From IMG/VR virus record IMGVR_UViG_3300020248_000002: 64,000 nucleotides of DNA. One strand, 5' to 3'. The stretch's first letter is position 1. The number at the start of each line of letters is the position of its first letter. The notes below the pieces were generated by a model. It did no database searches. It saw nothing but the letters and a program-made list of their open reading frames with translations, and was not told the origin of the DNA. Source of the stretch: a virus. A program made the translations under genes and the position numbers. Below, one piece after another: positions 39,001 to 63,830 of the stretch.

Positions 39001-40485
39001 ATGAAGTTAGATAGAATCTGCATTATCGGAGGTGGTAGTGCAGGGTGGATGACAGCATCTATGTTGTCAAGACATTTTGAAGGAACTGGTATAGAAATAA
39101 CTGTTGTCGAAGCAGACATTCCAAGAATCGGAATCGGAGAAAGCACGACACAGTTTTTTAATACCTTTATACGGTATCTCGATCTCAAAGATGAAGATTG
39201 GATGCCACATTGTAATGCTACATATAAACACAGTGTCAAGTTTACTAACTTCAACCCAGACGGTTCATTTCATTATCCATTCGGTACAAGAGGCACAGAT
39301 ATACCTCTGACCGAGTATTATAATTGGAGGAGAGGAAGAAATATTGACAGTATGACCTTTTGTAGGGTATTCTCAGATGTTATAGACCCTATTGAAGTCA
39401 ACCGTCTTTATCCTCCATTTTTAGAAAGATACGTGGGTTATCACGTTGACGCACTATTATTCGGAGATTTTTTAAGAGATCATTATGCAATTCCAAAAGG
39501 TGTTAAACACATTAAAGGCACGGTCACTAACATTCAATCCTGCGTGGATGGGGTTAGCAGAGTTTACCTTGGCAGTGGGGATAGGTACGTTGATGGTGAT
39601 CTCTTCATAGATTGCACTGGATTCCGTGCATTATTGATGAATGAACTTAATGTGAAATGGGAAGATTGGAGTACACTATTAAAAAATGATTCTACTTGGG
39701 CAGTAAGAAAACCATATACAGATAAGAAAAAAGAAATACAACCATACACCGAGTGTACAGGTTTGAGTTCGGGATGGGTATGGAATGTACCTACTTGGGA
39801 TAGAATCGGAACGGGATATAATTATTGTTCACAATATATTACAGATGAAGATGCACTTGCAGAGTTTAAAGAGCATCTAGGAGTAGATATACCAGAGAAT
39901 ATGTTTAGATTACTCAAGTGGCCAACAGGGATTAGAGAGAAAGTATGGTCACATAACGTAGTGAGTATTGGTTTAAGTGCAGGTTTTATAGAACCATTAG
40001 AGTCTGGAGGACTATACTCAGTCCACGAGTTCTTATTTAAACTAATACAGGTGTTACCTAAAGCATCTAATAAATGGAACGGATTTCAACGAGAACAATT
40101 TAATCACTCAGTCAGAAAGAAATTTACATCATTCAGAGATTTTGTTGTGAAACATTATACTATGGGTTATAGAGATGATACACCGTTTTGGAAAGATTAC
40201 ACAGATATGGATGCACTAGGTGAGTTTCCAGATTTACTTACACAAGATTGGGAACAAATACAAAACATCAATTACATATCAGAAGGTGAAGCATACTTGC
40301 TAGGAGGTTATGAATATGATATAATGCCAGAACATTATGAAATGTTATCCAAAAGAAATGGATATAACATACCTGATTTTGAAGAACCGATCCTAAGAAG
40401 AACCTTTATGGATCAGACTTTGGGGAGATACCCGAACGCATATGAATACTATGAAAAGTACCTATATAATGAGCAAGGGAATTAA
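39001..40485 (+). CDS. flavin-dependent halogenase (tryptophan halogenase family)
   Basis: GGGSAG, IGIGEST, ATYK (catalytic Lys position), FIDCTGF, WVWNVP, FIEPLESGG. Confidence 0.92.
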   Translation: MKLDRICIIGGGSAGWMTASMLSRHFEGTGIEITVVEADIPRIGIGESTTQFFNTFIRYLDLKDEDWMPHCNATYKHSVKFTNFNPDGSFHYPFGTRGTDIPLTEYYNWRRGRNIDSMTFCRVFSDVIDPIEVNRLYPPFLERYVGYHVDALLFGDFLRDHYAIPKGVKHIKGTVTNIQSCVDGVSRVYLGSGDRYVDGDLFIDCTGFRALLMNELNVKWEDWSTLLKNDSTWAVRKPYTDKKKEIQPYTECTGLSSGWVWNVPTWDRIGTGYNYCSQYITDEDALAEFKEHLGVDIPENMFRLLKWPTGIREKVWSHNVVSIGLSAGFIEPLESGGLYSVHEFLFKLIQVLPKASNKWNGFQREQFNHSVRKKFTSFRDFVVKHYTMGYRDDTPFWKDYTDMDALGEFPDLLTQDWEQIQNINYISEGEAYLLGGYEYDIMPEHYEMLSKRNGYNIPDFEEPILRRTFMDQTLGRYPNAYEYYEKYLYNEQGN

Positions 40486-48839: not shown

Positions 48840-50110
48840 CAACACCCTTATTCTTATCAGAATCAATCCCATTGGAACTAAGAAACATCTTAAAATCACT
48901 AGAAATCGGTATGCCGATTAAATGGAACAATGATGTTGGAACTATTAGTTTCATATCAGATCACTACATCACAATATGTGTCAGAAAAATACCTGACGAA
49001 ACATATAAAGATGGACACAGACAGGTAAATGTAGTATGCCCTCGACACGAGTGGGATAACTTAGAAATTGAAGATTCACACTTCAAAAATGTAAAGAATT
49101 ACAAGGGAAAAACCAATGACCACCCTGGAAATGAGTATTTACCACCTGTTAAAAAAAGATGATTTTAACTAAAGACGAACTACACGCACTTGAGGATAGT
49201 TTGATGTATCTTTCAACCTATAATCAGGTTAAAATTGAAAAGGATAACTCAGTAAGTTGTAATGAGTTACACGAAAAAATCAAATTAGAGTTATTGAAAA
49301 GGCAATGGCATTGAGACAAATGGCGATCGTTCAAGCAAAATCAGAACGAGCGAGAATTAACCTTGCAACATATATGGGTGGAAGCACATTCGTATATATA
49401 GAAAACAAGCGAGAAGATGGTAGGATTTTCGTATCATCAGAATATAATAGAGAGTATTGGTTTTGGATAGACCCTCCTGACGACCCGAATTGGGATTATA
49501 TGGAGGTAAAAGAGGGAGAGGTCGTTAGCGAATGATAGTACCCTTAGAACATTTTACAAACACATCAAATAAACCTTATGACAGGAATTGGTATAAGGTT
49601 CATTGTAAAGATAAATCGGTAAAGATTTTACATAGTTACGAAGAGGTGTTAGAATGTTGGTGGAATTTCAACCAATACATTGACAAAGTTGAGGTAATTG
49701 ATGCAAAACGAACTAAACAAAGTGGAATTGGATTCTGACCCTAACGGTGGTTTAGAAATCAAACAAAACGAAGATGGTTCATTTATGTTAGAGTGGGATA
49801 AGAATGACCCACGTTGGGCAATGCTTAATGGGTTGTCTCAAGCACAACTAGAACAGATCATCTTAAAAGGATTACAGGAGGAATTAGGTTTATGAGTGGA
49901 GATTATGAGACACTAGAAACCAACCAACCAAAAATAACATACTCAGAGGAGATCAAAATTGATGGGGAGGACATACAGATAGTGATGAGACAAGTAGAGT
50001 CAATTCATTGTCAAGTAGCAGAATACCCCACGAGTGAATACTTACAGAGTAGATTAGAGTTAGTTCATTGTGAATTGAAAAGACTCAAAGAAAAATACGA
50101 GGACAATTAG
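48836..50110 (+). CDS. run of small coupled hypothetical ORFs (48836, 49159, 49305, 49532, 49698, 49892)
   Basis: Overlapping start/stop codons, several with GGAG/GAGG SD; no family recognised. Confidence 0.5.
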
Positions 50111-50121
50111 AATACTGTCAC

Positions 50122-50147
50122 ACCCTGTCTTGTTAGGCAGGGTTTTT
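50122..50147 (+). terminator. terminator-like hairpin overlapping promoter
   Basis: accctgtct-tgtt-aggcagggt followed by tttt. Confidence 0.6.
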
Positions 50148-50176
50148 GCTCTTAATATGAAATCACTTATTGAACA

Positions 50177-51448
50177 TTGATGATTACTTTACGACCACAC
50201 CAACAGCGTATTGTCGATATTATGAAGAACAACACCAAAGGTCAGGTTATTGTACCTACTGGCGGTGGTAAAACTATGTGTATGATACACGATCTCAAGA
50301 GACGTTTACAGACAACAGAAGGTGGAACTCTAAGTTGGTATCCTAAAACTTATGTTGTTGTTGCACCTCGTATCTTACTTGCAAACCAGTTATGCTCAGA
50401 GTTCTTAGAGCAAAATCTTGATGGTAATTATAATCAAGGTGTAGATGTGATGCACGTTCATAGTGGAGAAACACATTTCTACAGTACTACTAAACCAGAG
50501 AAGATCAAAACTTGGGTTAACAATAGTACTAAACATATAATTATTTTTACAACTTATCACTCTTTAAAACGTGTTGTCGAGTCTGATATTACTATTGATA
50601 CTGCTTATTTTGATGAAGCACATAACTCTGTTACGAGGTCTTTTAGTCCTCCTACTGAGTCTGTTTCTTATCATTCTAAATCCACATATTTTTTTACTGC
50701 TACTCCTCGCATTAGTTATCGCCATACTAGGGGAATGAACAACGAAAAGATATATGGAAATATTATTTGTAATATTGAAGCAAAAGAACTTGTCAACAAC
50801 GGTTCGATTATCCCTCCTACCATAGTTCCATTTCATACCAAAGAGAACAGAGATCGGAAACAGGCATTTGATCTTGATAGTCAAACTGTTACAGATATAC
50901 TTGATACTCTTGATAGTGATGACGCACATAAGGTTCTTGTTAGTGTACCGTCTAGCAGAATGTTGGGAGCAATGATGAGTCAAACTGATTTGATATATCA
51001 ACTTGAGAAACGTGGATTTGAGTTCTTGCATATCACATCTAAGTTTGGTGCATACGTCAACAGACAAAAGGTAAACAGAGAAAAGTTTTTCGATACTCTC
51101 ACTCAATACGGTAGAGACAAAGACAAGAAGTTTATCATATTCCATTACAGTATCTTGAGTGAAGGTATTAACGTGTCAGGATTGACCCATTGTATCCTCT
51201 TGAGACAGTTAGATGTAGTCTCTATGGCACAAACTATAGGTAGAGTAATTAGAATGGATACAGAGGATTCTAAGGACATTAGAGAAGGTGTAATCAAAGC
51301 GGGTGCATTAGAGTTTTACAGGAAGAAAACAGGATATGTTACTGTACCCTGTCACGCAAACTACGGTCAGCATATAATCAAGAGATTACAGGCGGTTGTA
51401 GATTCTATATTCATCAATGGACTACCTCCTGAGTCGTTAGTGGTATAA
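50177..51448 (+). CDS. superfamily 2 DEAH helicase (type III Res-like)
   Basis: LRPHQ, PTGGGKT, DEAH, TATP, LSEGI, QTIGRVIR. Confidence 0.9.
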   Translation: MMITLRPHQQRIVDIMKNNTKGQVIVPTGGGKTMCMIHDLKRRLQTTEGGTLSWYPKTYVVVAPRILLANQLCSEFLEQNLDGNYNQGVDVMHVHSGETHFYSTTKPEKIKTWVNNSTKHIIIFTTYHSLKRVVESDITIDTAYFDEAHNSVTRSFSPPTESVSYHSKSTYFFTATPRISYRHTRGMNNEKIYGNIICNIEAKELVNNGSIIPPTIVPFHTKENRDRKQAFDLDSQTVTDILDTLDSDDAHKVLVSVPSSRMLGAMMSQTDLIYQLEKRGFEFLHITSKFGAYVNRQKVNREKFFDTLTQYGRDKDKKFIIFHYSILSEGINVSGLTHCILLRQLDVVSMAQTIGRVIRMDTEDSKDIREGVIKAGALEFYRKKTGYVTVPCHANYGQHIIKRLQAVVDSIFINGLPPESLVV

Positions 51449-51479
51449 ATAGAAATACGAAACAAAGTAACACGTTAAA

Positions 51480-51881
51480 ATGGCAACTGCAAAAGTAAAA
51501 ACTGCAACGAATGGTATTTGTACTGAATTAGTTGCAAAAGCGAAGGCATATAGACTCGCAAATATTACTGCTAGAATGACATCAGCAGGTACTGGAAGTT
51601 TATCTGATTACAAATTAAATGCTAAAAAAGAAAAACTTGAAAGTGATGATGCGTCAGTAGTTTGGGGATTTGCTAGTAGGACAGCAGGAGACGATTTAGA
51701 GATAGTCGCTACTGCACCAACTGACAGAGGTTCTGTTGTATCAGTATGGGGATTTGTAACCAAAGACGGACTCATAGGTAAAGATGAAGCATCAGCAAGA
51801 GTCAGTACAACTGATATTACAGATAGTTCTACCCTTACCACATTCAAGGCAAATATGACGCACTTAGGGACACATTGGTAG
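51480..51881 (+). CDS. hypothetical protein with late promoter
   Basis: TATAAATA at 51444-51451; A/T/S-rich. Confidence 0.6.
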   Translation: MATAKVKTATNGICTELVAKAKAYRLANITARMTSAGTGSLSDYKLNAKKEKLESDDASVVWGFASRTAGDDLEIVATAPTDRGSVVSVWGFVTKDGLIGKDEASARVSTTDITDSSTLTTFKANMTHLGTHW

Positions 51882-51891
51882 GTGTCACATT

Positions 51892-51915
51892 ACCCCCTTT
51901 GCAGGGGGTTTTTTT
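51892..51915 (+). terminator. intrinsic terminator
   Basis: accccct-ttgc-agggggt followed by a T run. Confidence 0.75.
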
Positions 51916-51950
51916 GTGTCATACTAGGTTCAGTTAACAAACACCAATTT

Positions 51951-52427
51951 ATGTCAACTAGATCAAGAATCGGAATTGAACTCGAAGATGGTTCAATCAA
52001 ATCTGTATATCATCACTTTGATGGATACCCAGAAGGACTAGGAGTTAAATTACTTACTCACTACACTACTGAAGAATCAGTAAACAAACTTATTGACGGT
52101 GGCAATATGTCAAACTGTTGGTCTGACTCAACATTTGATGTAGAAACAGGAGAGTTCCACCCAGTTGCAGACCCAAAACCTGCATACTATGGTGGAGAAG
52201 ATGAAAAACCAATTATCAGTAAGAAAAGAAAAGATTTCTTTATGATTGATTGTTGGCAAGAGTATTCATACATATTTGTTCCAAACGGTAGAGGTCAAGG
52301 ATTCTGGGCAATGTATGAGGTCAAGCATCAATATGATGAGAACTATGACCAGATACTATCCTATGAAGCAACACCCTGCACTCGTAGAGCGTTAGATCAA
52401 ATTGAAAAAGGAGAGGTATTAGTATAA
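51951..52427 (+). CDS. conserved phage hypothetical protein
   Basis: MSTRSRIG...SVYHHFDGYPEGLG..L..HY; AACAAACAC leader. Confidence 0.7.
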   Translation: MSTRSRIGIELEDGSIKSVYHHFDGYPEGLGVKLLTHYTTEESVNKLIDGGNMSNCWSDSTFDVETGEFHPVADPKPAYYGGEDEKPIISKKRKDFFMIDCWQEYSYIFVPNGRGQGFWAMYEVKHQYDENYDQILSYEATPCTRRALDQIEKGEVLV

Positions 52428-52747
52428 TGTTAGGAGAAACTAAACCAAAGGTCGTAGATTGCTATGACCTTTTAACAGGAGAGCAACGTGAACAAATTGC
52501 TGAAATAATGATGGAAGCAATGTCATTTCACGACATATACCCAGATATATGGGAAATGAAAGTTGAAGCAATTATTGATTCGGAGACAGATCAAAATGAC
52601 ATTCAATGAAGTACAAAGAAGGTGGCAACACTTTCACGAAACAAATGAAGAAATATCATTTGATGATTTCTTATTCTTTAAGAAACTTGCCAAACAGTTT
52701 CCTTACGTCTATACTGAGTGGGGAACATTATTATCAGAGGATAACCA

Positions 52748-53248
52748 ATGATGCAAACACCAGAACAAAAGTATCAGCAATTATTTGAGAAAATGTATCA
52801 GTTATGTATTGAGCAAGGTTGGGGCGACCCATTCTCTTATGCTCGATCAAGAGAGATACATCTAGCAGGGGTGTTAGGTCATAAAGTCGCTGAGGATTAC
52901 TCAGGTGCTGACGCATACGACAAATATGATTTACCCATAGAATATAAGTCAACCATAGGTAAGAAGTTGACAGCGACATACAACGGTATATCAGTTCAAC
53001 CAACGTGGGAAGAACAAGTTGATTACCTAGTTGATGAGAAGATAGGAAAGTATCATCATCATTATTATGCACGATACAAAGATGGTAAAATCGTTGAAGT
53101 GTGGCGAATGACCGCAGGGCAAGTCCTTGATATTCTTTTACCAGAATTGAAAAAGAAATTCAATACTGTAAAGAATAGAAAAGACCCACGTTTAGGTCAC
53201 ACTATTAGTAATAAACTAATTGTTGAACAAGGAACTAAAATTATATGA
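52748..53248 (+). CDS. putative PD-(D/E)xK restriction-like endonuclease
   Basis: REIHLA...GADAYD......IEYKST. Confidence 0.55.
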   Translation: MMQTPEQKYQQLFEKMYQLCIEQGWGDPFSYARSREIHLAGVLGHKVAEDYSGADAYDKYDLPIEYKSTIGKKLTATYNGISVQPTWEEQVDYLVDEKIGKYHHHYYARYKDGKIVEVWRMTAGQVLDILLPELKKKFNTVKNRKDPRLGHTISNKLIVEQGTKII

Positions 53249-53327
53249 CAGTTATAATACTGTCACACCTAGAATTGCATAGTACACAATGCTATGCAAT
53301 ACTAGATTATAGTTAACAAACACCAAA

Positions 53328-56300
53328 ATGATTGACACAATGTTAAATAGCGTTGATGAGACATTCGGAAACACACTTGCCGAACTCATCAAAGAGTATG
53401 TCACAGAATTAGTAGATCATCAAACTGACATCATTACAGACTCAGATTGGTTTTACGAAAAGGTAGAGAAAATGGTTGATGAAAGGGTAGCGGAGAAATT
53501 AAATGCTAACTGAAAACTGGACAGTAGATCAAAAAAAGAAACTACTTGATGAATATGTGTTATTTCGCATAGAAGAAATGACTAGAGACGAAATGGCATC
53601 ATACGTCTATGATAGTATGAGACAAGAGATCATAGTATCAAGACCTGATCTTACCCTAGACGAGACTCTTAAGCAAGAAATTGACGAGTATGATGAATAC
53701 TTGTATGAAAAACTTACTGACTATGTGTTAGACAAACCAGACTCATACTCAGCATTATGTGAGTTTTTAAGAGATCGACAGGACAACATTTATTATGACA
53801 ATTAAAATATTGTCACATTAACTATTGTATTCTCTACAAAACTGTTTTAATATTAAATCATACAAACACCAACAAATTATGAAAAAAGTTTCATTTGCAT
53901 TTATTCTTGACAACTTAACTGAATTAGGTTGGGATTACACCTGCGGTAGAATGTCAAGATCAGGTATGGAAATCTATGACGGTATTATGAGACATTGCGG
54001 TGTCTTAAAAGAAACAGAGCATTGGAATGAAGATGTCTTTGCAGAGTCTAACGGAGATTGGTAATGGGAAAAGCAACAGGACAAATGCAAGAAGAAACAA
54101 GAGAACTTCTTGACCATTATAATAACCTATACAACTGGGATTATAATGAAATGTGTAGGTTCATTGAAAACTATGGAGAGACATATTTTTTAACCTACTA
54201 TGACATATATCATAGACTTTGTGAAGATTATGGTACAGAGTTAGTTGATCTGTTTTCAGATTACTTTGATGTGGATACAGTACCACATTTTGAGAATATG
54301 TACGAGGGTCAATTTGAAACAGCAAAAGATTTTGCAGAATACTATTGTACTGAGGTAGATGAAGCAACAAAAAATCTACCAGATTATGTGACACTTGACT
54401 ATCAAGATATATGGGATAACAAACTCTCAAAAGAATATGTTGAAATTGATTGCTCTATGGTAGATCATACCTATGGACACATATTCAAGTTGAAGTATTA
54501 AAAAGACAGTTTAAATACTGTCACACAGACTATTGTATTCTATACACAATAGATTTAATATTAGATCAGTTACAACAACACTATGACTCTTAAACAACTT
54601 ATTCGAGAGTATGTCAATGACCACTTCGATCACTTTGGATTCTATCCTTATGAAGTTGAAGTAGATGGACAAGTTTACTCATACGGTGGATACTGGCAAA
54701 TTTTAGAAGATACGAGGTTCGACTAATGGTTCAACAACAGTACGTTATGCAGTTCACAACAAGAACTGACTACTATCAAAACTTTGAAATATCATTTGAT
54801 GAGTTTTGGGAAGATTATTGTAAGGAAATGGATTTTGATGAAGAGGAGTCCGATCTTAACGATTGGGATAATGAGGACTTGATGCAAGTAGCGTGGGAGT
54901 ACATTCTTAAAGACCCTGAGAAGTATAGATCAGGTAATTCTGACTATGATAACGAGGAAATTATGAACTACACATTACACAGGATTTAATTATGAAACAA
55001 GATTTTAACAGAGATTATCAACCAGAGGGAGTGAAGTACCATTTCCCTGATGATGACCCATATCAAGAGAGTAACGAAATTTACTACAATATGGTAGATT
55101 TTCTAGATGACTCAGAGGTACATCAAATATGGGAGATTGTGGGTAAGGCAATGGACAGAAATAATATTGTCACAACAGACAACGAAAGTTTATCTGTTAG
55201 GGTGTATGATGAAATCAGTTACGAGGATTAACACTTATGCCAACAGTACCAACCTATGATTTCCCCCAAAGTCCGATCCTAATAATAGGATTCTTTGGGA
55301 TCTTAGTTGCACTAGCAGTATTGTTTGTTGCAAACAAATCATATTTTTCAAGTCCATTCAATGAGGATAACAAGTAATGGAACTCACTAAAAAACAACAC
55401 GACAATCTCATAGAAATATTTGTTGAGAGGGTAGTTGACAATATGAATACTGTTCAACTTGCCGAGTATGTATCAGCAGATATGATCGAATGTTTTGGTA
55501 GTATGCCACAACAAGAGTGTATAGAGAATATGTACTCATATTATGATGAGGAATTTGTTGAAGAACTAATAGAGGAGGTTAAGGAAATTGACTAAGTACA
55601 GAGATCAAAAAGCAACTATTTTTTCAGAGATTGCATCAATCCTCGAAGATGGGGATAATGGTACACCTTATGATTTAATAGATTTTATGATCGAATTGAT
55701 GACTAAAGATCAACTTAATCAAGTTGAGGATTTAATCACTAATCAGTATCAACAGTATCACGAGGACTAATCAATGTATTATGAAGAGGGATTATGGGAA
55801 TATGCCACAGATAAGGCATACGAAATGATGAAACACAGGAAACAATTTCTTGATGATGATACATTTAATTATCAAATAGAATACTGGACTAAAAAAGTAT
55901 ATCAAGAAAATTCACACTTAAGAGGTATTGATTAATGTTAATGTGCAAACCAGTAAATACTTTCAAAACTGAAATATGTGTTGATTGTGGTAATCTATGT
56001 TCACTTGGAACAGGTAGATATGTCAATCGTTATGCAGTATATAACGAGGAAGTCGAGGGTTGGAGGTGTGGATTTTGTGCTGAAGAACTAGACGCACTTA
56101 TGGAAGATTTGATAGAGGACAATTAAAATATTGTCACACTAACTATTGCATTATATACAAAATAGTTTTAATATTAAATCAGTTACAACAACACTATGAC
56201 CAACTATGAAGCATTATTAACTCTCATAGGAGACATCAACAACGCTTTTTGTCACTTAGATGATGATGAAGTTGCTGATATATGTGATGGAGACATCAAA

Positions 56301-59300
56301 CTGTTAGACAAAGCAGTTAAGAGATTTAAAACAACTGTATGGGAGAATCAGTTATGATGACCTATGAGAACTGGATAAAGAGTTGCCCTGACCCTGTTCG
56401 ATTTGCTACAAATTACGTTGATATAGAATCTGACGTATTATCTGTTATTGACACATACGACAGGGAAGAATGGGATAAATCAAAAATTGATGAGGAATTT
56501 ATCAAGGACATTTGTTATCAAGTTTACGATCAAGATTGGTCAGAATGGAATGATTTTATTGCTTATTTAATCGACAACAAAATGGAGGAAATCTTATGAT
56601 TATCTTAACAATTCTAGTAATTATATTTGTTATAATATTAATGTTAAACTACTACAACCCACATCACTAAAATGTATCAACTTAATTTAACAGCAAGAGA
56701 ACTAGGTTTAGTTGCAAATCAATTAGGTTACTGTTATTGTGACCTAGATGAGAACAATGCACCGTCAGGAATGGCATTTGACCGATACGGTAAAGATGCA
56801 GTTGTAGGAGCATTTAGAAAGGTTCAAGAACTCATTAACGATCAATGGTTAACAGAGAATGAACTAGAATTATCTAAAGAGCAACGTAAAACTACATTTC
56901 CAATACCTAGTGAATCAGCATTTGGTATTGAGAGAGATTTCGAGGTGCTAAGAATGAAAAGAAAAGATCACAATAAAATTTCTAAAAGACCTACTTCATT
57001 CTATATGTAATTATGAAACAATTTAACATAACAATAAACGAAACAGAGCAACAGATTTTAATTGACTCTATGATGTTCTTTTTTACATTCTATAACAATG
57101 AAACAAAAGGTAATGACACATCAAATACCGTTGATATGTATAGAGTATGGTATAAAAAGAACAAATTAAAAGATAGCAAAGCAACATTTGAAAAAGTATT
57201 CTATGCTATGACAGATAAAAAAGTGTCACTACCAGAATTGAAATAGACACATTATCGTTTAATATTAAATCAAGAAACAAAACACTATTATGTCAGTTTT
57301 ACATCACGAGTCAATCTTAGAAACACTTTATGATGAAGTTGTTGCCGAGTCACTCGAAAATCTAAGAAAAGCAGGATTCAATGTTAAAGAGTCCGATCTT
57401 GATATGGTTGCTATAGATGCCACAGTTGGTAGGAGGTTCGAGGACTTATGCCTATAATCAAACTATCAATCGAAGAGCATCAATCACTCACTAGGTTATT
57501 ATCACACCCTAAAACAATGAAATATAGGAGTGATTTATATGATACAGAAACTTTTGACTCAATGGAAGATAAAGTTTATGATGCAGTAAACAACTTAACA
57601 GTAGAGGATTTCTAAAATGAAAACAGAATCACTAGATAAATCTATTGATGTCTTAATTGACACAATAATGAAATCAACTATTAGAGCAGTTGATGAGAAC
57701 CGTATGGAGGACTCAAAAGCATTATTTGATGAATTTGTTGTAGATGGTAAAGAACCATTAACAGACAATTTCGAGTGGTTATACACTTATTACAAATTTG
57801 ATGATTCAATGCGAGGTATTGAAAATGATTAATGTACAGATTACTTTTGATGAAGCATACCAGTTTATTAAACTGTATGATATTCTAAGGGATATGGATA
57901 TGCCCTTAACAGAAAAACAAATGAGTGTATTTGAGAAAGTACAATATGCTCAAAGTAGTTCACATTATCAGGATTTACCACAATGAGCAAATTAACACCA
58001 TTTCAACAGGCACTAGCAACAAATATGGGTCAAGAAAAATTAGACTCAGATAATCTAGTTACACTTGTAAGAAGAAGATTTCTTTTAGAAGAAGTTGTAT
58101 TGACAAGAGAACAGTACGAAAATTACTCATCTAAGGTTGATAGTACTGGTTTTACTTGGGATTCATTAAAATGGGAAAATGCTCAATGGGAAGATTATGA
58201 GTTTGAAAACACTTATTATAGTGCCTATGAAGGCGATATTACAAGTTTTACTGATGATGTAGTTGCATTTATGCAACCTGACCCAGAAAATCGTTTATCT
58301 TATGAACAGTTGCCACTACTGAATAGTGACGATTTTTACGATCAATTCAACAAATAATTTGAGGGTGTGACAGTAAAAATATTGTCACACCTTTTATTGT
58401 ATTTGATACAAAATGGTTTAATATACAAATAGTTAAAAACAACACTATGAACTTTGAAAAAATTTTAGAACAGTTCCAAACTGACCTAGAAAACTATTGT
58501 AAGGAAAATCAGTCCTTACACCCTATGAATCAAGATTTTTGGTTTAGTCAATTTGAAAATGACATTTACGAAATGCAGGAAATCGTTGACGGTATTCTAG
58601 GATTTGACTTTCAAGAAGCGTATAACTCTCAATATGACCCTGAGAGAGTGACTACACCCGAAGAAAGGGATAGAATCGCATTTCAGCAAAAAATGGAAGC
58701 GAAGGGTTAATATGCAGTACTTAGTAACCGATATTGAATTTGACTTCAATGAAGATTTACCAGATTATTATAGTGTCTCATTTGATGACCAAAAACTAAT
58801 AATCAATGACAATTTAGGTTTATGGGAAGCAACCGACCCTGATGATTTAATCGAAGAAGTGACCGCTAACGCAGGTTGGTGCATTAAATCAATCGACTAC
58901 AAAATACAATTAAAAGAGGACTTTTAAAAATGAATGAACTAAAAAGATATTACATCAATGTAAAATTCGATAAATACGGAACATATACTTTTGAAGCAAA
59001 AAGTAAGGAACACGCTATTGAACTTTACAAAAATGGGGATTATGATTTTTCAGATTATACTGAAGATTTTGGGGAATTTAATGAAGTTATAGAAGATATT
59101 GAAGAAGAAATTTTTACAGATACTCAACTATCATTAGCAATTTAATTATTTCTTAACAATTCAAATATCCATTATTCATTATTTTATGTTATGATGGATT
59201 CATATACAAAAAACACTATGGACAACTTTAAAGAATTTCTTGATTATTGTGAATCATTTTATTCACCTAGTCACCCTGATGTGCTTTACCCTATTGATGG

Positions 59301-61191
59301 TTTAACTAGGGAAGAATTAGCACTTGCAACTTTAAACTATCTCGACCTATGTGAAGTAGGCACTCACGTTACTTGGGGCGGTGGGGATTCTCTTGATAGA
59401 GAGAGAGTAAGAGATTTTGTTATTGAGCGTAGAGCAACTAATCAAACATTATCAAAAATGGGGGTGGCATAATGGCATTATGTGACGTATGTGGTAATTT
59501 TGATGATGAGCATACTGACGGAGAACCGTCAATTAGGGCATTACCAGATTATCAACCTGATCTCTATTACTATTGGGATTATCCAATAGAAGAAAAATAT
59601 AATTGGCGAGATCATTTTCCTGATGCTGATTGTCTTTGCGAAATTTGTTTTGATATAGCGAATCAAGAAAAGAAAATCAAATGGGAAAATAATTAATTAT
59701 TTCTTAATATTTCATTATTGACATATATCAGAAATATATGCAATAATAAATTATACAAAACAACACTAAAAAAAATGTCAAAAAATCAATTCAATTTCAA
59801 ATATACAGTTGAAACACCCAGATTATTTAATTCTGAGGTATATACTGATGATTTAGAAAAAGCAAAGGATTTATCCTTTGAATTTGGGTTAGATTATGAA
59901 TATTCTTGTGTTCGAGATAACAAAACAGGGGAAATAATTGATGAAACAGGGAACATAATGGGGTTAGTAGAGGAGGGTATCGTATAATGTTTACACAAAA
60001 AGAAATCCTCTATATGATAGAGTGTTTAAACTTTCATTATTCAGAAAATGATGACAAGAAAAATGAAATTATTGATGTCAATTCTGACATTTTAATTAAA
60101 TTACATAAGGAGTTAATCAAGTGAAAATTAAGCAACTAATTGAAGAATTGGGTTTATTTGTTGATTATGAAAAATCAACTTGTAAACCTGATGATAACAT
60201 AACATTTTATTATTTGAAGAATAACCATTTAACAAATTGTCAATTTGAAAGTTTTTTCGATTGTAATTATGTTGATATTAATGATAATGTTGATTATGAG
60301 TTTACAATTCAAGATACTAGCGAAATTATGGAGGATTCTAACTAATGAACCAAAAACAGTTTATCGAAGAAGTTTTTGAAATTGCATACGGAGAAAATGC
60401 GATTAATCGAAATTTCACTTTTGAAGAAGTTATTGAAACATTAAGAGAATTTTCAGATAATGCTTTAATTTTTGAAGAATCAGGTTTAACTAGGGAAGAA
60501 TTAGAGAATATCAGCGAAATTAGTCAAGAGTCCTATAAAAAGGGATATATTGATAGAAAAAAAGATGAATTGTTAAAAAAATGTTAAGATCAATTTTTCC
60601 TATTGCATTATGCTTAATTTTCCCTTATATTGGTTATGTACAAACAACACTAACCTAACCTACTATGGATAAGGATTTAAAAATGCTTCATAGACTTATC
60701 AAATTTGCAGATAAGGAAATTGCGAAGCAAAACGCTAAAACTGAGATTCTTATAGATCAGTTTAACAACAGAAACAACTTACTTAGAGGTTAAACAAAAT
60801 GAATAAAAGACTAGGTTTAATCTTTTTATTGTTACTTGTAATAAATCCTATTACAGGTAACTTTACAAGAGTTCAAATATCTAAAACTCTTGATTTTACA
60901 TCTAACATAATCCACCCTTATAGGTCATACTAATGGAATTATTTTTACTTATCGGTGGTTGTTATGCCTTATTCATAACTGGTAAAGCAATAGCAACTAA
61001 CCTAGACTACCACGCTATACAAAAGGATAGAAAGTAATGAATGATGATTTTATGCCATCAATGAGTGATGACTTAGTTAAACTTGCTGACCAATATGAAG
61101 GCAACTTATTAAACTATTTTTGCGGTATGAGTCCAAAACAAAGTAAAAAGTTTAATAAAATGATAAGAGACTCTAAGAAAAAAAGATTTTA
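53328..61191 (+). CDS. dense array of more than 30 small, mostly acidic early-type ORFs
   Basis: Co-oriented 40-150 aa ORFs with ATGA/TAATG coupling, behind repeated promoters; mostly no family recognised. Confidence 0.6.
54064..54501 (+). CDS. ArdA-like antirestriction (DNA-mimic) protein
   Basis: YEGQFETAKDFAEYY....LPDYVTLDYQDIW resembles the ArdA C-terminal region; strongly acidic. Confidence 0.6.
   Translation: MGKATGQMQEETRELLDHYNNLYNWDYNEMCRFIENYGETYFLTYYDIYHRLCEDYGTELVDLFSDYFDVDTVPHFENMYEGQFETAKDFAEYYCTEVDEATKNLPDYVTLDYQDIWDNKLSKEYVEIDCSMVDHTYGHIFKLKY
55237..55377 (+). CDS. 46-aa single-TM protein
   Basis: MPTVPTYDFPQSPILIIGFFGILVALAVLFVANKSYFSSPFNEDNK. Confidence 0.5.
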   Translation: MPTVPTYDFPQSPILIIGFFGILVALAVLFVANKSYFSSPFNEDNK

Positions 61192-61270
61192 GATTTTCTT
61201 AACAATTCAATCCACAATAATTAATTACCTATGCTAATATAGGTATATAAGCAAAAAACACTTTTTTAAA

Positions 61271-61705
61271 ATGCCAACTTTGACTTTTTCAAAACCCAGT
61301 ATTACAACCGCATTATTCGCTATGATGAAGTGTAATACAAAAGGAACTGGTCTAGGTAATACTGAAGTTATTACTAGGTTAGACGGTTCAAATATTGTTG
61401 ACGTAAAATTTTACGATACAATAATTGCTTCAATCGACCACACACATTTTGGTTATAGGTCGGTTAAATTATACAATGGTGGATTTAGAACCAAAACAAC
61501 TAAAGAGAGATTAAACGCAATTCTTAGTGAACTAACTAAGGATAGAGTTTATATCAAACAAGTAAAAAAACAATGGGTAGTAATTGACACTTTAACTGGT
61601 GCAGAAATTCAATTCTACGAAGGTATGAAAGTATTTGAAAAGCATTTAACTATTTCAGATATTGATTATTTTAACACTAACGGATACTACCCACTAGCAA
61701 GTTAG
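61271..61705 (+). CDS. conserved phage hypothetical protein
   Basis: GNTEV, GGFRTKTTKERLNAIL. Confidence 0.65.
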   Translation: MPTLTFSKPSITTALFAMMKCNTKGTGLGNTEVITRLDGSNIVDVKFYDTIIASIDHTHFGYRSVKLYNGGFRTKTTKERLNAILSELTKDRVYIKQVKKQWVVIDTLTGAEIQFYEGMKVFEKHLTISDIDYFNTNGYYPLAS

Positions 61706-61826
61706 ATAACTGGCATTAAAAGGTTTTAGTGTTCCCTTTTATGTAAGTCCAGTAATATTAATCATATCTCACACTATGGTTAATATTGTTAGGTTAAATT
61801 GATAAATTTAAAAATTTGGTTTTTTT

Positions 61827-61859
61827 AAGGTTAGAATTGGGAACTCTAACCTTTTTTTT
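61827..61859 (+). terminator. intrinsic terminator
   Basis: aaggttaga-attgggaac-tctaacc followed by T8. Confidence 0.75.
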
Positions 61860-61940
61860 ATGCTTTATTATTTCTTAATATTTCATACTCACATAATGTA
61901 AAAAATATGTTATCATAGTATTAACAACACTAATTACACT

Positions 61941-62549
61941 ATGTTCGAGTTTTATCCTTACGCTACAGAGAAGGGAAATATCCCAAACACTATAGTAAGT
62001 AAAATTAATTTTCCTAATAATAGTTTTGGAGCATCTATCGTTTACTTTGAAAATGATGGATTATATGAACTTGCTTTAACTAATAGTTTTGGAAGATTTA
62101 TAACTGGTAATGGAGCAGAATATAAGTATTCTTGCACATTAGCAGAAATTAACTCATATTTGAGACAATGGAGCGAATATTAAGAGAATATTAAATTCTC
62201 TTTTTTACTCTCACATATTTTAAAAAATATGTTATCATTAATTTATACAAAACACTTTTTTCCCAAAATGTACAAAATTGCAAATTTCACTCTTGACCTA
62301 TCTACAATTACAACAGAGGATTTAGTCAAAGTATTAGATAAAAAATTTAACTATTGTGGCAACTGGAAGGCAACAGTTTATTCACAGAAAAATTTAGAAG
62401 ATATTGCCCATAATGTTTTACAAGTTTTATATAAACGTGATTCTTGGGTATATGATAATGAAATTTATGTTTCAAGCGAAGTTTTAGAAACTGTTTTAGA
62501 GACAGTAATTCACATTTATGAGGGATATGTAAACCTTAAGAGATTGTAA
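61941..62549 (+). CDS. two monocistronic early-type hypothetical ORFs (61941-62183; 62268-62549)
   Basis: Each has its own TATGTTATCAT promoter box and ends in an aagaga...tctctttttt hairpin. Confidence 0.6.
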
Positions 62550-62621
62550 AAAATCTCTTTTTTTATTCCCATAAATCAAAAATTTATGTTATCATTAATT
62601 TAACAACACTAATTTCCCAAA

Positions 62622-63161
62622 ATGCAAACTTTATCTAACTCTCAGCAAACTAGACTAGACAAAATCAATGCTGACCTAAGAAAGTCAAGAGTTTTAGAAC
62701 TTAATGAAATTGTTAACCGTAGTTTACAATTTTCTACTGATTATGGAGTAGAATTTTCTAAAGTCTCAGAAATAGCACTTGATGAGGGAACAGAGAGACT
62801 AGACGAAATTCAAGAATTTCAAGAGACTTTCAACTTAGATATAGATGACGCTATTGAAGAAATTGACACATACGAAAATGTTTGTAATGAGTTACGTTAC
62901 TTCGATTCCCCAGTTGATGAAATTATTGAAGCATTTATTAACTTATTCAGTATAAACGACTTAATGCACTTAGAAGAGTCCTATAGAGGAAAATACTACA
63001 GCGGAGCAGAATTTACAGAGGAATTAATCGCAGAATGTGGTTATATTTCTAACTCACTTCCAAGTTGGATAGAGAACTGTATCGACTACGAAAAAATTTG
63101 GAATCATTCTCTAAGTTATGACTATTGCGAATGGGATAACCATATTTTTAGCAATTTCTAA
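62622..63161 (+). CDS. ArdA-like antirestriction protein, second copy
   Basis: YRGKYYSGAEFTEELI......LPSWIENCIDYEKIW...LSYDY; acidic. Confidence 0.62.
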   Translation: MQTLSNSQQTRLDKINADLRKSRVLELNEIVNRSLQFSTDYGVEFSKVSEIALDEGTERLDEIQEFQETFNLDIDDAIEEIDTYENVCNELRYFDSPVDEIIEAFINLFSINDLMHLEESYRGKYYSGAEFTEELIAECGYISNSLPSWIENCIDYEKIWNHSLSYDYCEWDNHIFSNF

Positions 63162-63192
63162 GTAAAAAAGGGTTTTAATTAATCTTATATAT

Positions 63193-63220
63193 AAAGGGAC
63201 TATTAACAAGTCCCTTTTTT
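63193..63220 (+). terminator. intrinsic terminator
   Basis: aaagggact-attaaca-agtccctttttt. Confidence 0.75.
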
Positions 63221-63234
63221 TATTATCCTTTAAA

Positions 63235-63600
63235 ATGATGACTATTTACACGTTTAAAAAAGTAGATGCGGAGACATTTATAGACGATAGCGGAAACATA
63301 TATAAACCTTTACCACTATATGAAGATTATTACATTAAGGAGAATGGCGAGGTCTATTCAACTAAGTGGGGAAAGTGGAAAAAACTTAGGACTCATATTA
63401 ATGAAAACGGTTACAAGAGAGTGACTTTACGACATAACGGTAAGACCGTAGTAAGGAGAATTGCTAGACTTGTTGCAAGTGCTTTTTTAAATGCGGAGAC
63501 TTCAGAAAGTGGACTAACTAACCCTATAGAACATAAGCAAGTGAGACATATAGATGGGAACAAAGTAAACGATCATTTTAAAAACTTGCGGTATAAGTAA
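63235..63600 (+). CDS. NUMOD4-HNH homing-endonuclease-like protein, probably degenerate
   Basis: YYI.ENGEVYS, GY.RVTL, RLVA.AF, HIDGNKVN..KNLRY then stop. Confidence 0.75.
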   Translation: MMTIYTFKKVDAETFIDDSGNIYKPLPLYEDYYIKENGEVYSTKWGKWKKLRTHINENGYKRVTLRHNGKTVVRRIARLVASAFLNAETSESGLTNPIEHKQVRHIDGNKVNDHFKNLRYK

Positions 63601-63830
63601 GCAAAAAACCCTATTAATAAAAAGGTATAAAAAAATATAGTTTATAATTTTATATCTCTTTAAATATCTCTAGGAATAGGAGTCTTAGGAAGTTAGCACG
63701 AAACGGATTTTTTTTCTACCTATTCTGTTACACTATGTCATAATAACTGCAACTTAACATATATTCCCAGATATTCACATATATTAGAATTATTCGCTAT
63801 AATTAATATAACAACACTAACTAACCCACT

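Follow-up and report, generated by a model that had tools for sequence, protein, structure and literature searches.

A repeated palindrome in a block of small genes

We analysed 64,000 nucleotides (nt) of viral DNA (IMG/VR virus record IMGVR_UViG_3300020248_000002; this whole stretch is hereafter the window), which by its sequence is a T4-like cyanomyovirus, and in it a palindrome, GACA-N10-TGTCAC, that recurs in front of small genes in a block of 8.3 kb. The 423-amino-acid protein encoded at 50177-51448 is a superfamily 2 (SF2) helicase with ResIII/DEAD/Helicase_C domains, whose best matches (421 records) are Synechococcus and Prochlorococcus myoviruses at 52-60% identity, and a Kyanoviridae Gp96 domain is encoded at 61271-61705. 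A megablast of 50000-58500 against named phages found no shared DNA, and three viral contigs are close: L001 (helicase 96% identical), L088 (99% over the open reading frame (ORF) 56672-57010) and L090 (94%). All or part of the stretch is contained in 20 of 24 listed sequencing runs, six of which are on record as RNA; the two RNA runs inspected held parts of the region only, as contigs. Joints with a side of fewer than 30 letters (such as those from 51246 to 53900 and from 56172 to 57713) were excluded, and parts without cover in run X15 carry no meaning.

The core word GACA-N10-TGTC has 10 matches in the window against 1.06 expected, a number that none of 100 shuffles reached. Nine of them (at 50102, 51869, 53247, 53797, 54505, 55154, 56118, 57210 and 58369) lie on the + strand between 50102 and 58388 and extend to TGTCAC, a density of nine copies per 8.3 kb, or about one per kb. 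The tenth, at 39051, lies within a 494-amino-acid ORF, does not extend to TGTCAC and has no promoter downstream. Outside the block, the 64-kb window holds no promoter-type copy; contig L001 (90.6 kb) has none besides the five in its own block, and contig L088 has none along the approximately 64 kb by which it continues past the block. The preliminary description had listed eight copies with an invariant 10-nt spacer; all eight are real, and the count was short by one, the copy at 55154 being the ninth.

Architecture of the cassettes

The copies belong to a common unit of about 85 nt that comprises the palindrome, 8 nt, a TTGnnn hexamer (in seven copies), 16-17 nt, a -10-like hexamer, a leader and ATG. 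The nine cassettes are as follows.

Cassette 1, 50102..50158 (+): palindrome 50102-50121; terminator hairpin 50122-50143, with TTGTTA (50130) in its loop; -10 TAATAT 50153-50158; heads the SF2 helicase gene, ATG 50180
Cassette 2, 51869..51925 (+): palindrome 51869-51888; GC-rich terminator hairpin 51892-51909; CATACT about 31 nt past TGTCAC; ATG 51951
Cassette 3, 53247..53303 (+): palindrome 53247-53266; -35 TTGCAT 53275 within an 11-pair hairpin; -10 AATACT 53298-53303; ATG 53328; upstream TGA stop (53246-53248) overlaps GACA
Cassette 4, 53797..53853 (+): palindrome 53797-53816; -35 TTGTAT 53825; -10 TAATAT 53848-53853; ATG 53879
Cassette 5, 54505..54561 (+): palindrome 54505-54524; -35 TTGTAT 54533 in a 7-pair hairpin; -10 TAATAT 54556-54561; ATG 54583
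Cassette 6, 55154..55210 (+): palindrome 55154-55173; poor -35 (ACGAAA); -10-like TATGAT 55205-55210; within the 3' end of ORF 54992-55231; cassette-type leader and ATG 55237 of a 46-codon ORF
Cassette 7, 56118..56174 (+): palindrome 56118-56137; -35 TTGCAT 56146 in a 7-pair hairpin; -10 TAATAT 56169-56174; ATG 56196
Cassette 8, 57210..57265 (+): palindrome 57210-57229, entirely within the end of ORF 57013-57246; -35 TTGAAA 57238; -10 TAATAT 57260-57265; ATG 57290
Cassette 9, 58361..58424 (+): palindrome 58369-58388, lengthened to a 15-pair stem 58361-58394 and followed by a T-run (terminator-like); -35 TTGTAT 58397; -10 TAATAT 58419-58424; ATG 58447

A -35 box exactly 8 nt past TGTCAC, as previously described for six copies, was recovered in all six (those at 53247, 53797, 54505, 56118, 57210 and 58369), and the 50102 copy supplies a seventh TTGnnn at the same spacing, within the loop of its terminator hairpin. 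The hexamers across these seven copies are TTGTAT, TTGCAT, TTGAAA and TTGTTA. In all nine copies a -10-like hexamer whose second letter is A and whose sixth is T (TAATAT, CATACT, AATACT or TATGAT) stands 30-31 nt after TGTCAC, its position in the 51869 copy having been read by eye. Between the -10 and ATG lies an AC-rich leader of 21-26 nt without a Shine-Dalgarno sequence. The -35 is weak, with TTGyAT matching the consensus at three of six positions, and only 57238 among the cassette promoters passed a generic 9-of-12 sigma-70 scan, in which the region was not enriched (82 promoters found against 73 +/- 8 expected). When the start site is placed 7 nt after the -10, the centre of the palindrome falls about 54 bp before the inferred start and its span is approximately -63 to -44.

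Along 51930-63830, the first genes of the cassettes share an AC-rich leader (...ACAACAACACT ATG) and have no Shine-Dalgarno sequence; the internal genes of the units over the same interval mostly abut or overlap the preceding stop codon.

Hairpins and the ends of upstream genes

Eight copies were folded, and in the minimum-energy structures of seven the palindrome forms a hairpin (hairpin A), the copy at 57210 folding otherwise; the same seven have a second hairpin (hairpin B) over the -35. Hairpin A mostly has a stem of 4-7 pairs and a loop of 6-10 nt, and its arms are invariant, with no compensatory substitution, while the sequence of hairpin B differs in every copy. Hairpin B thus varies in sequence and is kept as a hairpin, so that its structure is what is conserved, and the opposite holds for hairpin A. 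At 50122-50143 and 51892-51909 hairpin B is GC-rich, is followed by a T-run and is terminator-like by scan, in agreement with the terminator hairpins previously placed over the -35 region of the 50102 and 51869 copies; elsewhere it is AT-rich and has no T-run. The scan returned three terminator-like hairpins, at 50122, 51892 and 58361.

The palindrome also overlaps the ends of upstream genes, again as described beforehand: proteins ending in DN stop at 50110, 53805 and 56126, one ending in GTHW at 51881 and one ending in LPELK at 57246. An additional overlap was found at 53246-53248, where a TGA shares bases with GACA. The shared DN endings arise because GAC AAT TAA/TAG is one frame of GACAAT followed by the AT-rich spacer, and TGA within (T)GACA is another source of stops, used at 53248 and also three times in the cyanophage P-TIM40. 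The upstream stop codon has no set position: at one extreme it precedes the palindrome by 4 nt (54501), and at the other it lies 17 nt (57246) or 58 nt (55231) past the last base of the palindrome. Since the -10 is fixed at 30-31 nt and the position of the stop is variable, the element is tied to the downstream promoter and not to the upstream gene.

These observations bear on the explanation that the palindrome acts in RNA, forming a hairpin at the 3' end of the preceding transcript (a terminator, a stabiliser or a processing site), its nearness to a promoter being mere packing. Hairpins of 4-15 pairs do form in seven of the eight folded copies (all except 57210), the stretch 58361-58394 resembles a terminator in its 15-pair stem and T-run, and several upstream genes end inside the palindrome. 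Nonetheless, we regard this explanation as very unlikely, because the arms never vary whereas the structural hairpin B changes freely, and because the distance to the -10 is constant whereas the upstream stop wanders. Moreover, most stems have 4-7 pairs, their loops span 6-10 nt and they lack a T-run; at the places that do need a terminator (50122, 51892) there is a GC hairpin in addition, after the palindrome; and the same phase to the promoter is kept in distant phages.

Conservation of the element among cyanophages

In contigs whose helicase is only 42-48% identical to that of the window, GACA-N10-TGTCAC occurs about 72 nt ahead of the helicase start as well as at other places. Among 88 related phage loci there are 42 distinct sites when perfect palindromes are counted in both orientations, and 20 of these have a strong TAnnnT hexamer (at least a 5/6 match to TATAAT) 29-31 nt after TGTCAC, compared with 2% of 20,000 random positions. 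Many of the sites in distant relatives are without a recognisable -35. That the phase is the same in distant relatives, often where no -35 can be seen, indicates that the palindrome is a sequence-specific, phase-fixed upstream promoter element. Within the close relative L001 the arms are identical, and the spacer of the 54505 copy is altered at several positions. P-TIM40 has four exact and two one-mismatch promoter-type copies (GTGTGACAGTTnnATTAGTGTCAC) between 48887 and 53764, with TATAAT, TATATT or TATTAT 29-30 nt after the right arm, in a block of small hypothetical genes.

Doron et al. 2016 (ISME J 10:1437) reportedly describe a 'novel regulatory element' that controls early-gene transcription in the cyanophages Syn9 and P-TIM40 and is said to be conserved among T4-like cyanophages. 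The palindrome is probably that element. The setting is likewise that of a T4-like cyanomyovirus in which the element heads small genes of an early-type block; by comparison, the window phage adds a recognisable TTGyAT -35 and a hairpin over that -35. Within the texts that it covered, our literature search found none that prints the cyanophage early motif. The element is of a known kind and unremarkable in this virus group; the window adds one clean set of nine sites and the combination of the element with a -35 and a terminator hairpin.

A probable upstream operator of early-type promoters

In our judgement each GACA-N10-TGTCAC probably serves an early-type promoter of this T4-like cyanomyovirus as its upstream operator. 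A predicted protein-binding site is the best reading of the palindrome because its arms are invariant without compensatory change, its distance to the -10 is fixed, and the same distance is found in phages with a helicase about 44% identical. A dimeric DNA-binding protein, present at DNA entry, would occupy both arms and would help the host RNA polymerase to start at otherwise weak promoters; this reader would be encoded by the host or, less likely, carried in the virion. In some copies hairpin B would terminate the preceding unit, which would make each unit an insulated terminator-promoter cassette resembling the promoter stem-loop (PeSL) cassettes of other T4-like phages. The reading bears on how T4-like cyanophages start their programme without the Alt, MotA and AsiA machinery of T4, and we know of no factor identified as reading the cyanophage early element.

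Several points weigh against the operator reading. Both promoter-type copies in Syn9 are one-mismatch copies only, and the equation with the element of Doron et al. depends on the abstract of that paper together with the P-TIM40 motif. The parts of the region that occur in contigs of RNA libraries (possibly from DNA) give no transcription starts, and the -35 and AT-rich spacer of this phage could alone give some activity.

Known upstream elements were compared with the palindrome and set aside. An UP element accounts for the AT-rich spacer and leaves the invariant arms unexplained. For a CRP-type site (consensus TGTGA-N6-TCACA) the fullest copy reads TGTGA-N14-TCACA; the core of an NtcA-type site (GTA-N8-TAC) is present in no copy, and the geometry of LexA, Pho-box and RpaB consensus sites does not fit.

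The same site, with its two arms lying immediately before the -35 in all early-type promoters of the block, might instead serve a phage-encoded repressor that closes these promoters at the early-to-middle switch. Such a role would agree with the site being found nowhere else in the window, nor in the next 64 kb or so of the 99% relative, and T4-like cyanophages have been reported to be without motA and asiA (PMC5780444), so that their switch lacks an explanation. We find a repressor unlikely, as the site stands in for a missing -35 in distant relatives, which suggests activation, and its centre near -54 is clear of the polymerase core contacts. In addition, the hosts have two regulatory sites that contain the same words (described below), and this analysis identified no candidate phage gene for a DNA-binding protein.

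Gene turnover at the cassettes

Aligning L001, L088 and L090 with the window over 49.8-63.5 kb revealed seven indels or replacements.

(a) 50100/50114: in L001, 164 bp replace 13, with a 144-bp ORF between left arm GACAAAT and right arm AACTGTCAC
(b) 53503: 143 bp extra in L001, at a gene junction
(c) 54994-55377: 170 bp instead in L001, which has a homologue of ORF 54992-55231 without the palindrome and has no 46-codon ORF
(d) 57898-58441: replaced in L001 and L090, with another cassette type before the 58447 gene; junction just before ATG (58441)
(e) ORF 58712-58927: absent from L001, replaced in L090
(f) ORF 60799-60933: absent from L001, L088 and L090
(g) 62270-62536: absent from L088; the flanks overlap in a repeated cassette of a second type

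Cassettes are involved in three of these events: the first breaks within the palindrome spacer, another ends where a palindrome cassette has its 3' edge, and a third falls between two second-type cassettes. The remaining four are at plain gene junctions. The left breakpoint at 50100 recurs in a contig from run X16, a metatranscriptome library, and the 58447 gene is headed by a palindrome cassette in the window and L088 and by the other cassette type in L001, L090 and the X16 contig. With three of seven events at cassettes, the survey fits PeSL-like shuffling by homology, for which the repeated cassettes would supply the homology for gene gain, loss and swapping; the cassette structure explains part of the gene turnover in the early block.

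PeSL shuffling and mini-circles have been documented in other T4-like phages (Arbiol et al. 2010, PMC2839356; Comeau et al. 2014, PMC4122927); these papers concern coliphage, Yersinia and Vibrio phages and describe no cyanophage PeSLs, and few PeSLs were found in a study of S-PM2 (PMC4503421). The preliminary description had likened the cassettes to PeSLs, and as to architecture the comparison fits, since an early-type promoter and a hairpin stand between small ORFs. Shared features are a stem-loop (terminator-like in three cassettes) joined to an early sigma-70-type promoter (here TTGnnn in seven copies, 16-17 nt from a -10 that is mostly TAATAT), an AT-rich stretch upstream of the -35 and placement between the small ORFs of a variable region. 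Some of the differences in gene content between close relatives, three of the seven, also lie at cassettes. The stems of PeSLs differ from one phage group to another and have been described as terminators. Unlike PeSLs, the cassettes of the window carry an extra pair of arms of fixed sequence that is conserved across distant cyanophages at fixed phase, and they are without a Shine-Dalgarno sequence.

It could also be that the palindrome is chiefly a recombination site for the capture or excision of cassettes, acting through PeSL-type homology or a site-specific enzyme. The 144-bp ORF of L001 lies exactly between the arms of the 50102 copy, with the same left breakpoint in the X16 contig, the cassette exchange before the 58447 gene has its junction at 58441, and the published precedents for shuffling and mini-circles come from phages of the T4 type (PMC2839356, PMC4122927). 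We consider this most improbable, given that a single indel out of the seven breaks within the palindrome, with four at plain gene junctions, that recombination has no need of a phase to the -10 kept across distant phages, and that no recombinase was found adjoining the block. Of the two roles previously proposed for the palindrome, singly or together, that of a putative protein-binding site is retained as the best reading, and that of a recombination point is weakly supported.

Further variation was seen among the relatives. The palindrome, -10 and leader of the 55154 cassette are all written into the last 26 codons of ORF 54992-55231, and the homologue in L001 (14965-15141) encodes a similar protein tail with the palindrome absent; therefore, a promoter arose or decayed inside coding sequence at 54992-55377. 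The downstream 46-codon ORF, also missing from L001, is apparently hydrophobic. ORF 60799-60933 (44 codons) is confined to the window in the comparison with the three relatives and has clean junctions at 60790/60917. Contigs of two DNA metagenome runs from different studies (X2 and X7) have a 21-nt insertion at 56346, where ORFs 56196-56357 and 56339-56599 overlap.

A conserved palindrome upstream of host plmA

Across 151 picocyanobacterial genomes the palindrome has 333 matches against 216 for a backwards control, or about one per Mb; as a general word of host DNA it shows no enrichment, so that a large host regulon is ruled out. Of ten host matches that were retrieved, three precede a GTG-started gene whose product reads as the N-terminus of a GntR winged-helix protein, namely plmA, and Rfam found nothing at any of the ten sites. 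Using the GntR protein as query, we found plmA in 56 of 61 genomes, and in 17 of the 30 best loci an exact GACA-N10-TGTC begins 57-72 nt before its start codon. Four further genomes gave three exact sites and, in the high-light (HL) strain Prochlorococcus MIT 9302, a one-mismatch site with GACG. In total, (G/T)GACA-N10-TGTCAC stands about 50 nt before the GTG start of plmA in 20 of 34 picocyanobacterial genomes (L187-L216 and L247-L250). At most of the other plmA loci the site differs by a single letter (GCCA, TGGCAC), an additional AACTG(T/G)CACA stands about 30 nt upstream at many of the loci, and by coordinates at least 16 among the 150 host matches listed are the plmA-upstream site.

The plmA-upstream site has the same 10-nt gap and arrangement as the phage element, and its right arm, ATTGTCAC, is that of four window copies. 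Its TTGTCA may itself be a -35, 17 nt before a conserved TAAGGT, in which case the site would overlap its promoter whereas the phage element lies upstream of one. As far as these genome sequences go, the comparison shows the phage-type arrangement to be a conserved host regulatory word tied to plmA, which does not by itself indicate the binder. We know of no description of a palindrome upstream of plmA, although no search was made for one.

CGRE1 and PlmA as a candidate reader

The second host site is CGRE1, described by Lambrecht et al. 2018 (PMC6191309). There, CGRE1 is a palindrome of 22 nt in HL strains and of 21 nt in low-light (LL) strains and Synechococcus, begins 55-57 nt before the yfr2 start site and has flanks of GTTG or GTTA and their inverse. 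PMM1637 (PlmA, of the GntR family) was pulled down with CGRE1 and shifted the yfr2 and yfr4 promoters, and in E. coli wild-type PMM1637 gave more expression from these promoters than its R50A mutant did.

Host examples of CGRE1 are CAACTGTCACATGTGACAGTTG (Prochlorococcus MIT 9302), CAACTGGCACTGTGACGGTTG (a Synechococcus) and CAACATTCACGGTGTCGGTTG (Prochlorococcus SS51), the Synechococcus copy (21 nt) lying about 50 nt before a Cyano-1 (RF01701)/Yfr2 RNA that contains GTGTGAGGAGTG. CGRE1 reads AACTGTCAC-at-GTGACAGTT and the phage element GTGACAGTT-N4-AACTGTCAC, so that the same two 9-mers occur in both with their order swapped. A G(A/C)CAGT(T/C) box was found in 18 of 30 regions upstream of RF01701 hits (41 genomes), in some with the full palindrome, and the consensus of the yfr2 upstream box, tgtGaCAGTT....tag, is close to the left arm and spacer of the phage. 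The letters past GACAGTT are alike too, being GAAATAG or GAGATAG in hosts, TAAATAC in the window and GGATTAG in P-TIM40. CGRE1 and the phage element therefore have the arm words (AAC)TGTCAC and GTGACA(GTT) in common, are of similar length (21-22 nt, against 22 nt for the phage element when the full GTGACA and TGTCAC arms are counted) and each sit upstream of a weak promoter. Another layout, GTTR...GTG..CAC...YAAC, was rejected as a description of CGRE1, with one match against three genomes for the backwards control.

Based on these likenesses, PlmA (PMM1637) is the best candidate reader of the phage palindrome, and we put it forward tentatively. It is conceivable, though we would not presume it, that T4-like cyanophages borrow PlmA for their first genes and that the palindrome is a rearranged copy of the CGRE1 and plmA-upstream sites. 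If PlmA were the reader, early infection would be wired into the nitrogen and light stress circuit of the host.

The assignment to PlmA has to be set against differences in geometry. Compared with CGRE1 (TGTCAC-AT-GTGACA), the arms of the phage element (GTGACA-N10-TGTCAC) are everted rather than inverted, and the gap between hexamers is 10 nt in the phage and 1-2 nt in CGRE1; accordingly, no phage copy has the CGRE1 pattern CAAC-TGTCAC-N1-2-GTGACA-GTTG, the hexamers being shared in swapped order. The centre of the phage element near -54 is about 9 bp farther upstream than that of CGRE1 near -45, and with its span of about -63 to -44 the phage site does not share the CGRE1 beginning at 55-57 nt before the start. 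With position weight matrices built from host sites, the cassettes take 4 (yfr2 matrix) and 6 (plmA matrix) of the top 16 places among approximately 128,000 positions, but their scores, 15.5 and 12.7, are not above the maxima of shuffled windows (means 14.1 and 10.8). Finally, in the published electrophoretic mobility shift assay (PMC6191309), PMM1637 did not bind the fragment of its own promoter, which argues against autoregulation of plmA. Together, the host comparison and the nine sites frame a concrete question, whether PlmA, or any protein of the lysate, would occupy the site at 58361-58394.

In MIT 9302 (L186), two diverging units flank a perfect 22-nt CGRE1 palindrome near base 1501. 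Both units contain a GTGAG-rich, Yfr2-like stretch, neither of which was called by the Rfam Cyano-1 model.

Neighbouring cassettes and other features

Weak ArdA-like matches occur at 54064-54501 and 62622-63161 (17.2 and 24.8 bits, below the Pfam cut-off of 27 and not significant alone). After the palindrome block, a second type of promoter cassette comprises ATTTCTTAAyAwTTCA, about 20 nt, an extended -10 (TATGTTATCAT or TGTTATGAT) and the leader AACAACACTA as in the palindrome cassettes, at the following positions.

59133-59190, 59690-59775, 61185-61270 and 61865-61940: second-type cassettes
62205-62268 and 62555-62621: -10 and leader of the second type alone

Near the beginning of the window, at 295-360, a terminator-like hairpin has TTGCAG in or at its 3' arm and TAATAT 17 nt further on, forming a terminator-promoter composite that is free of the palindrome.

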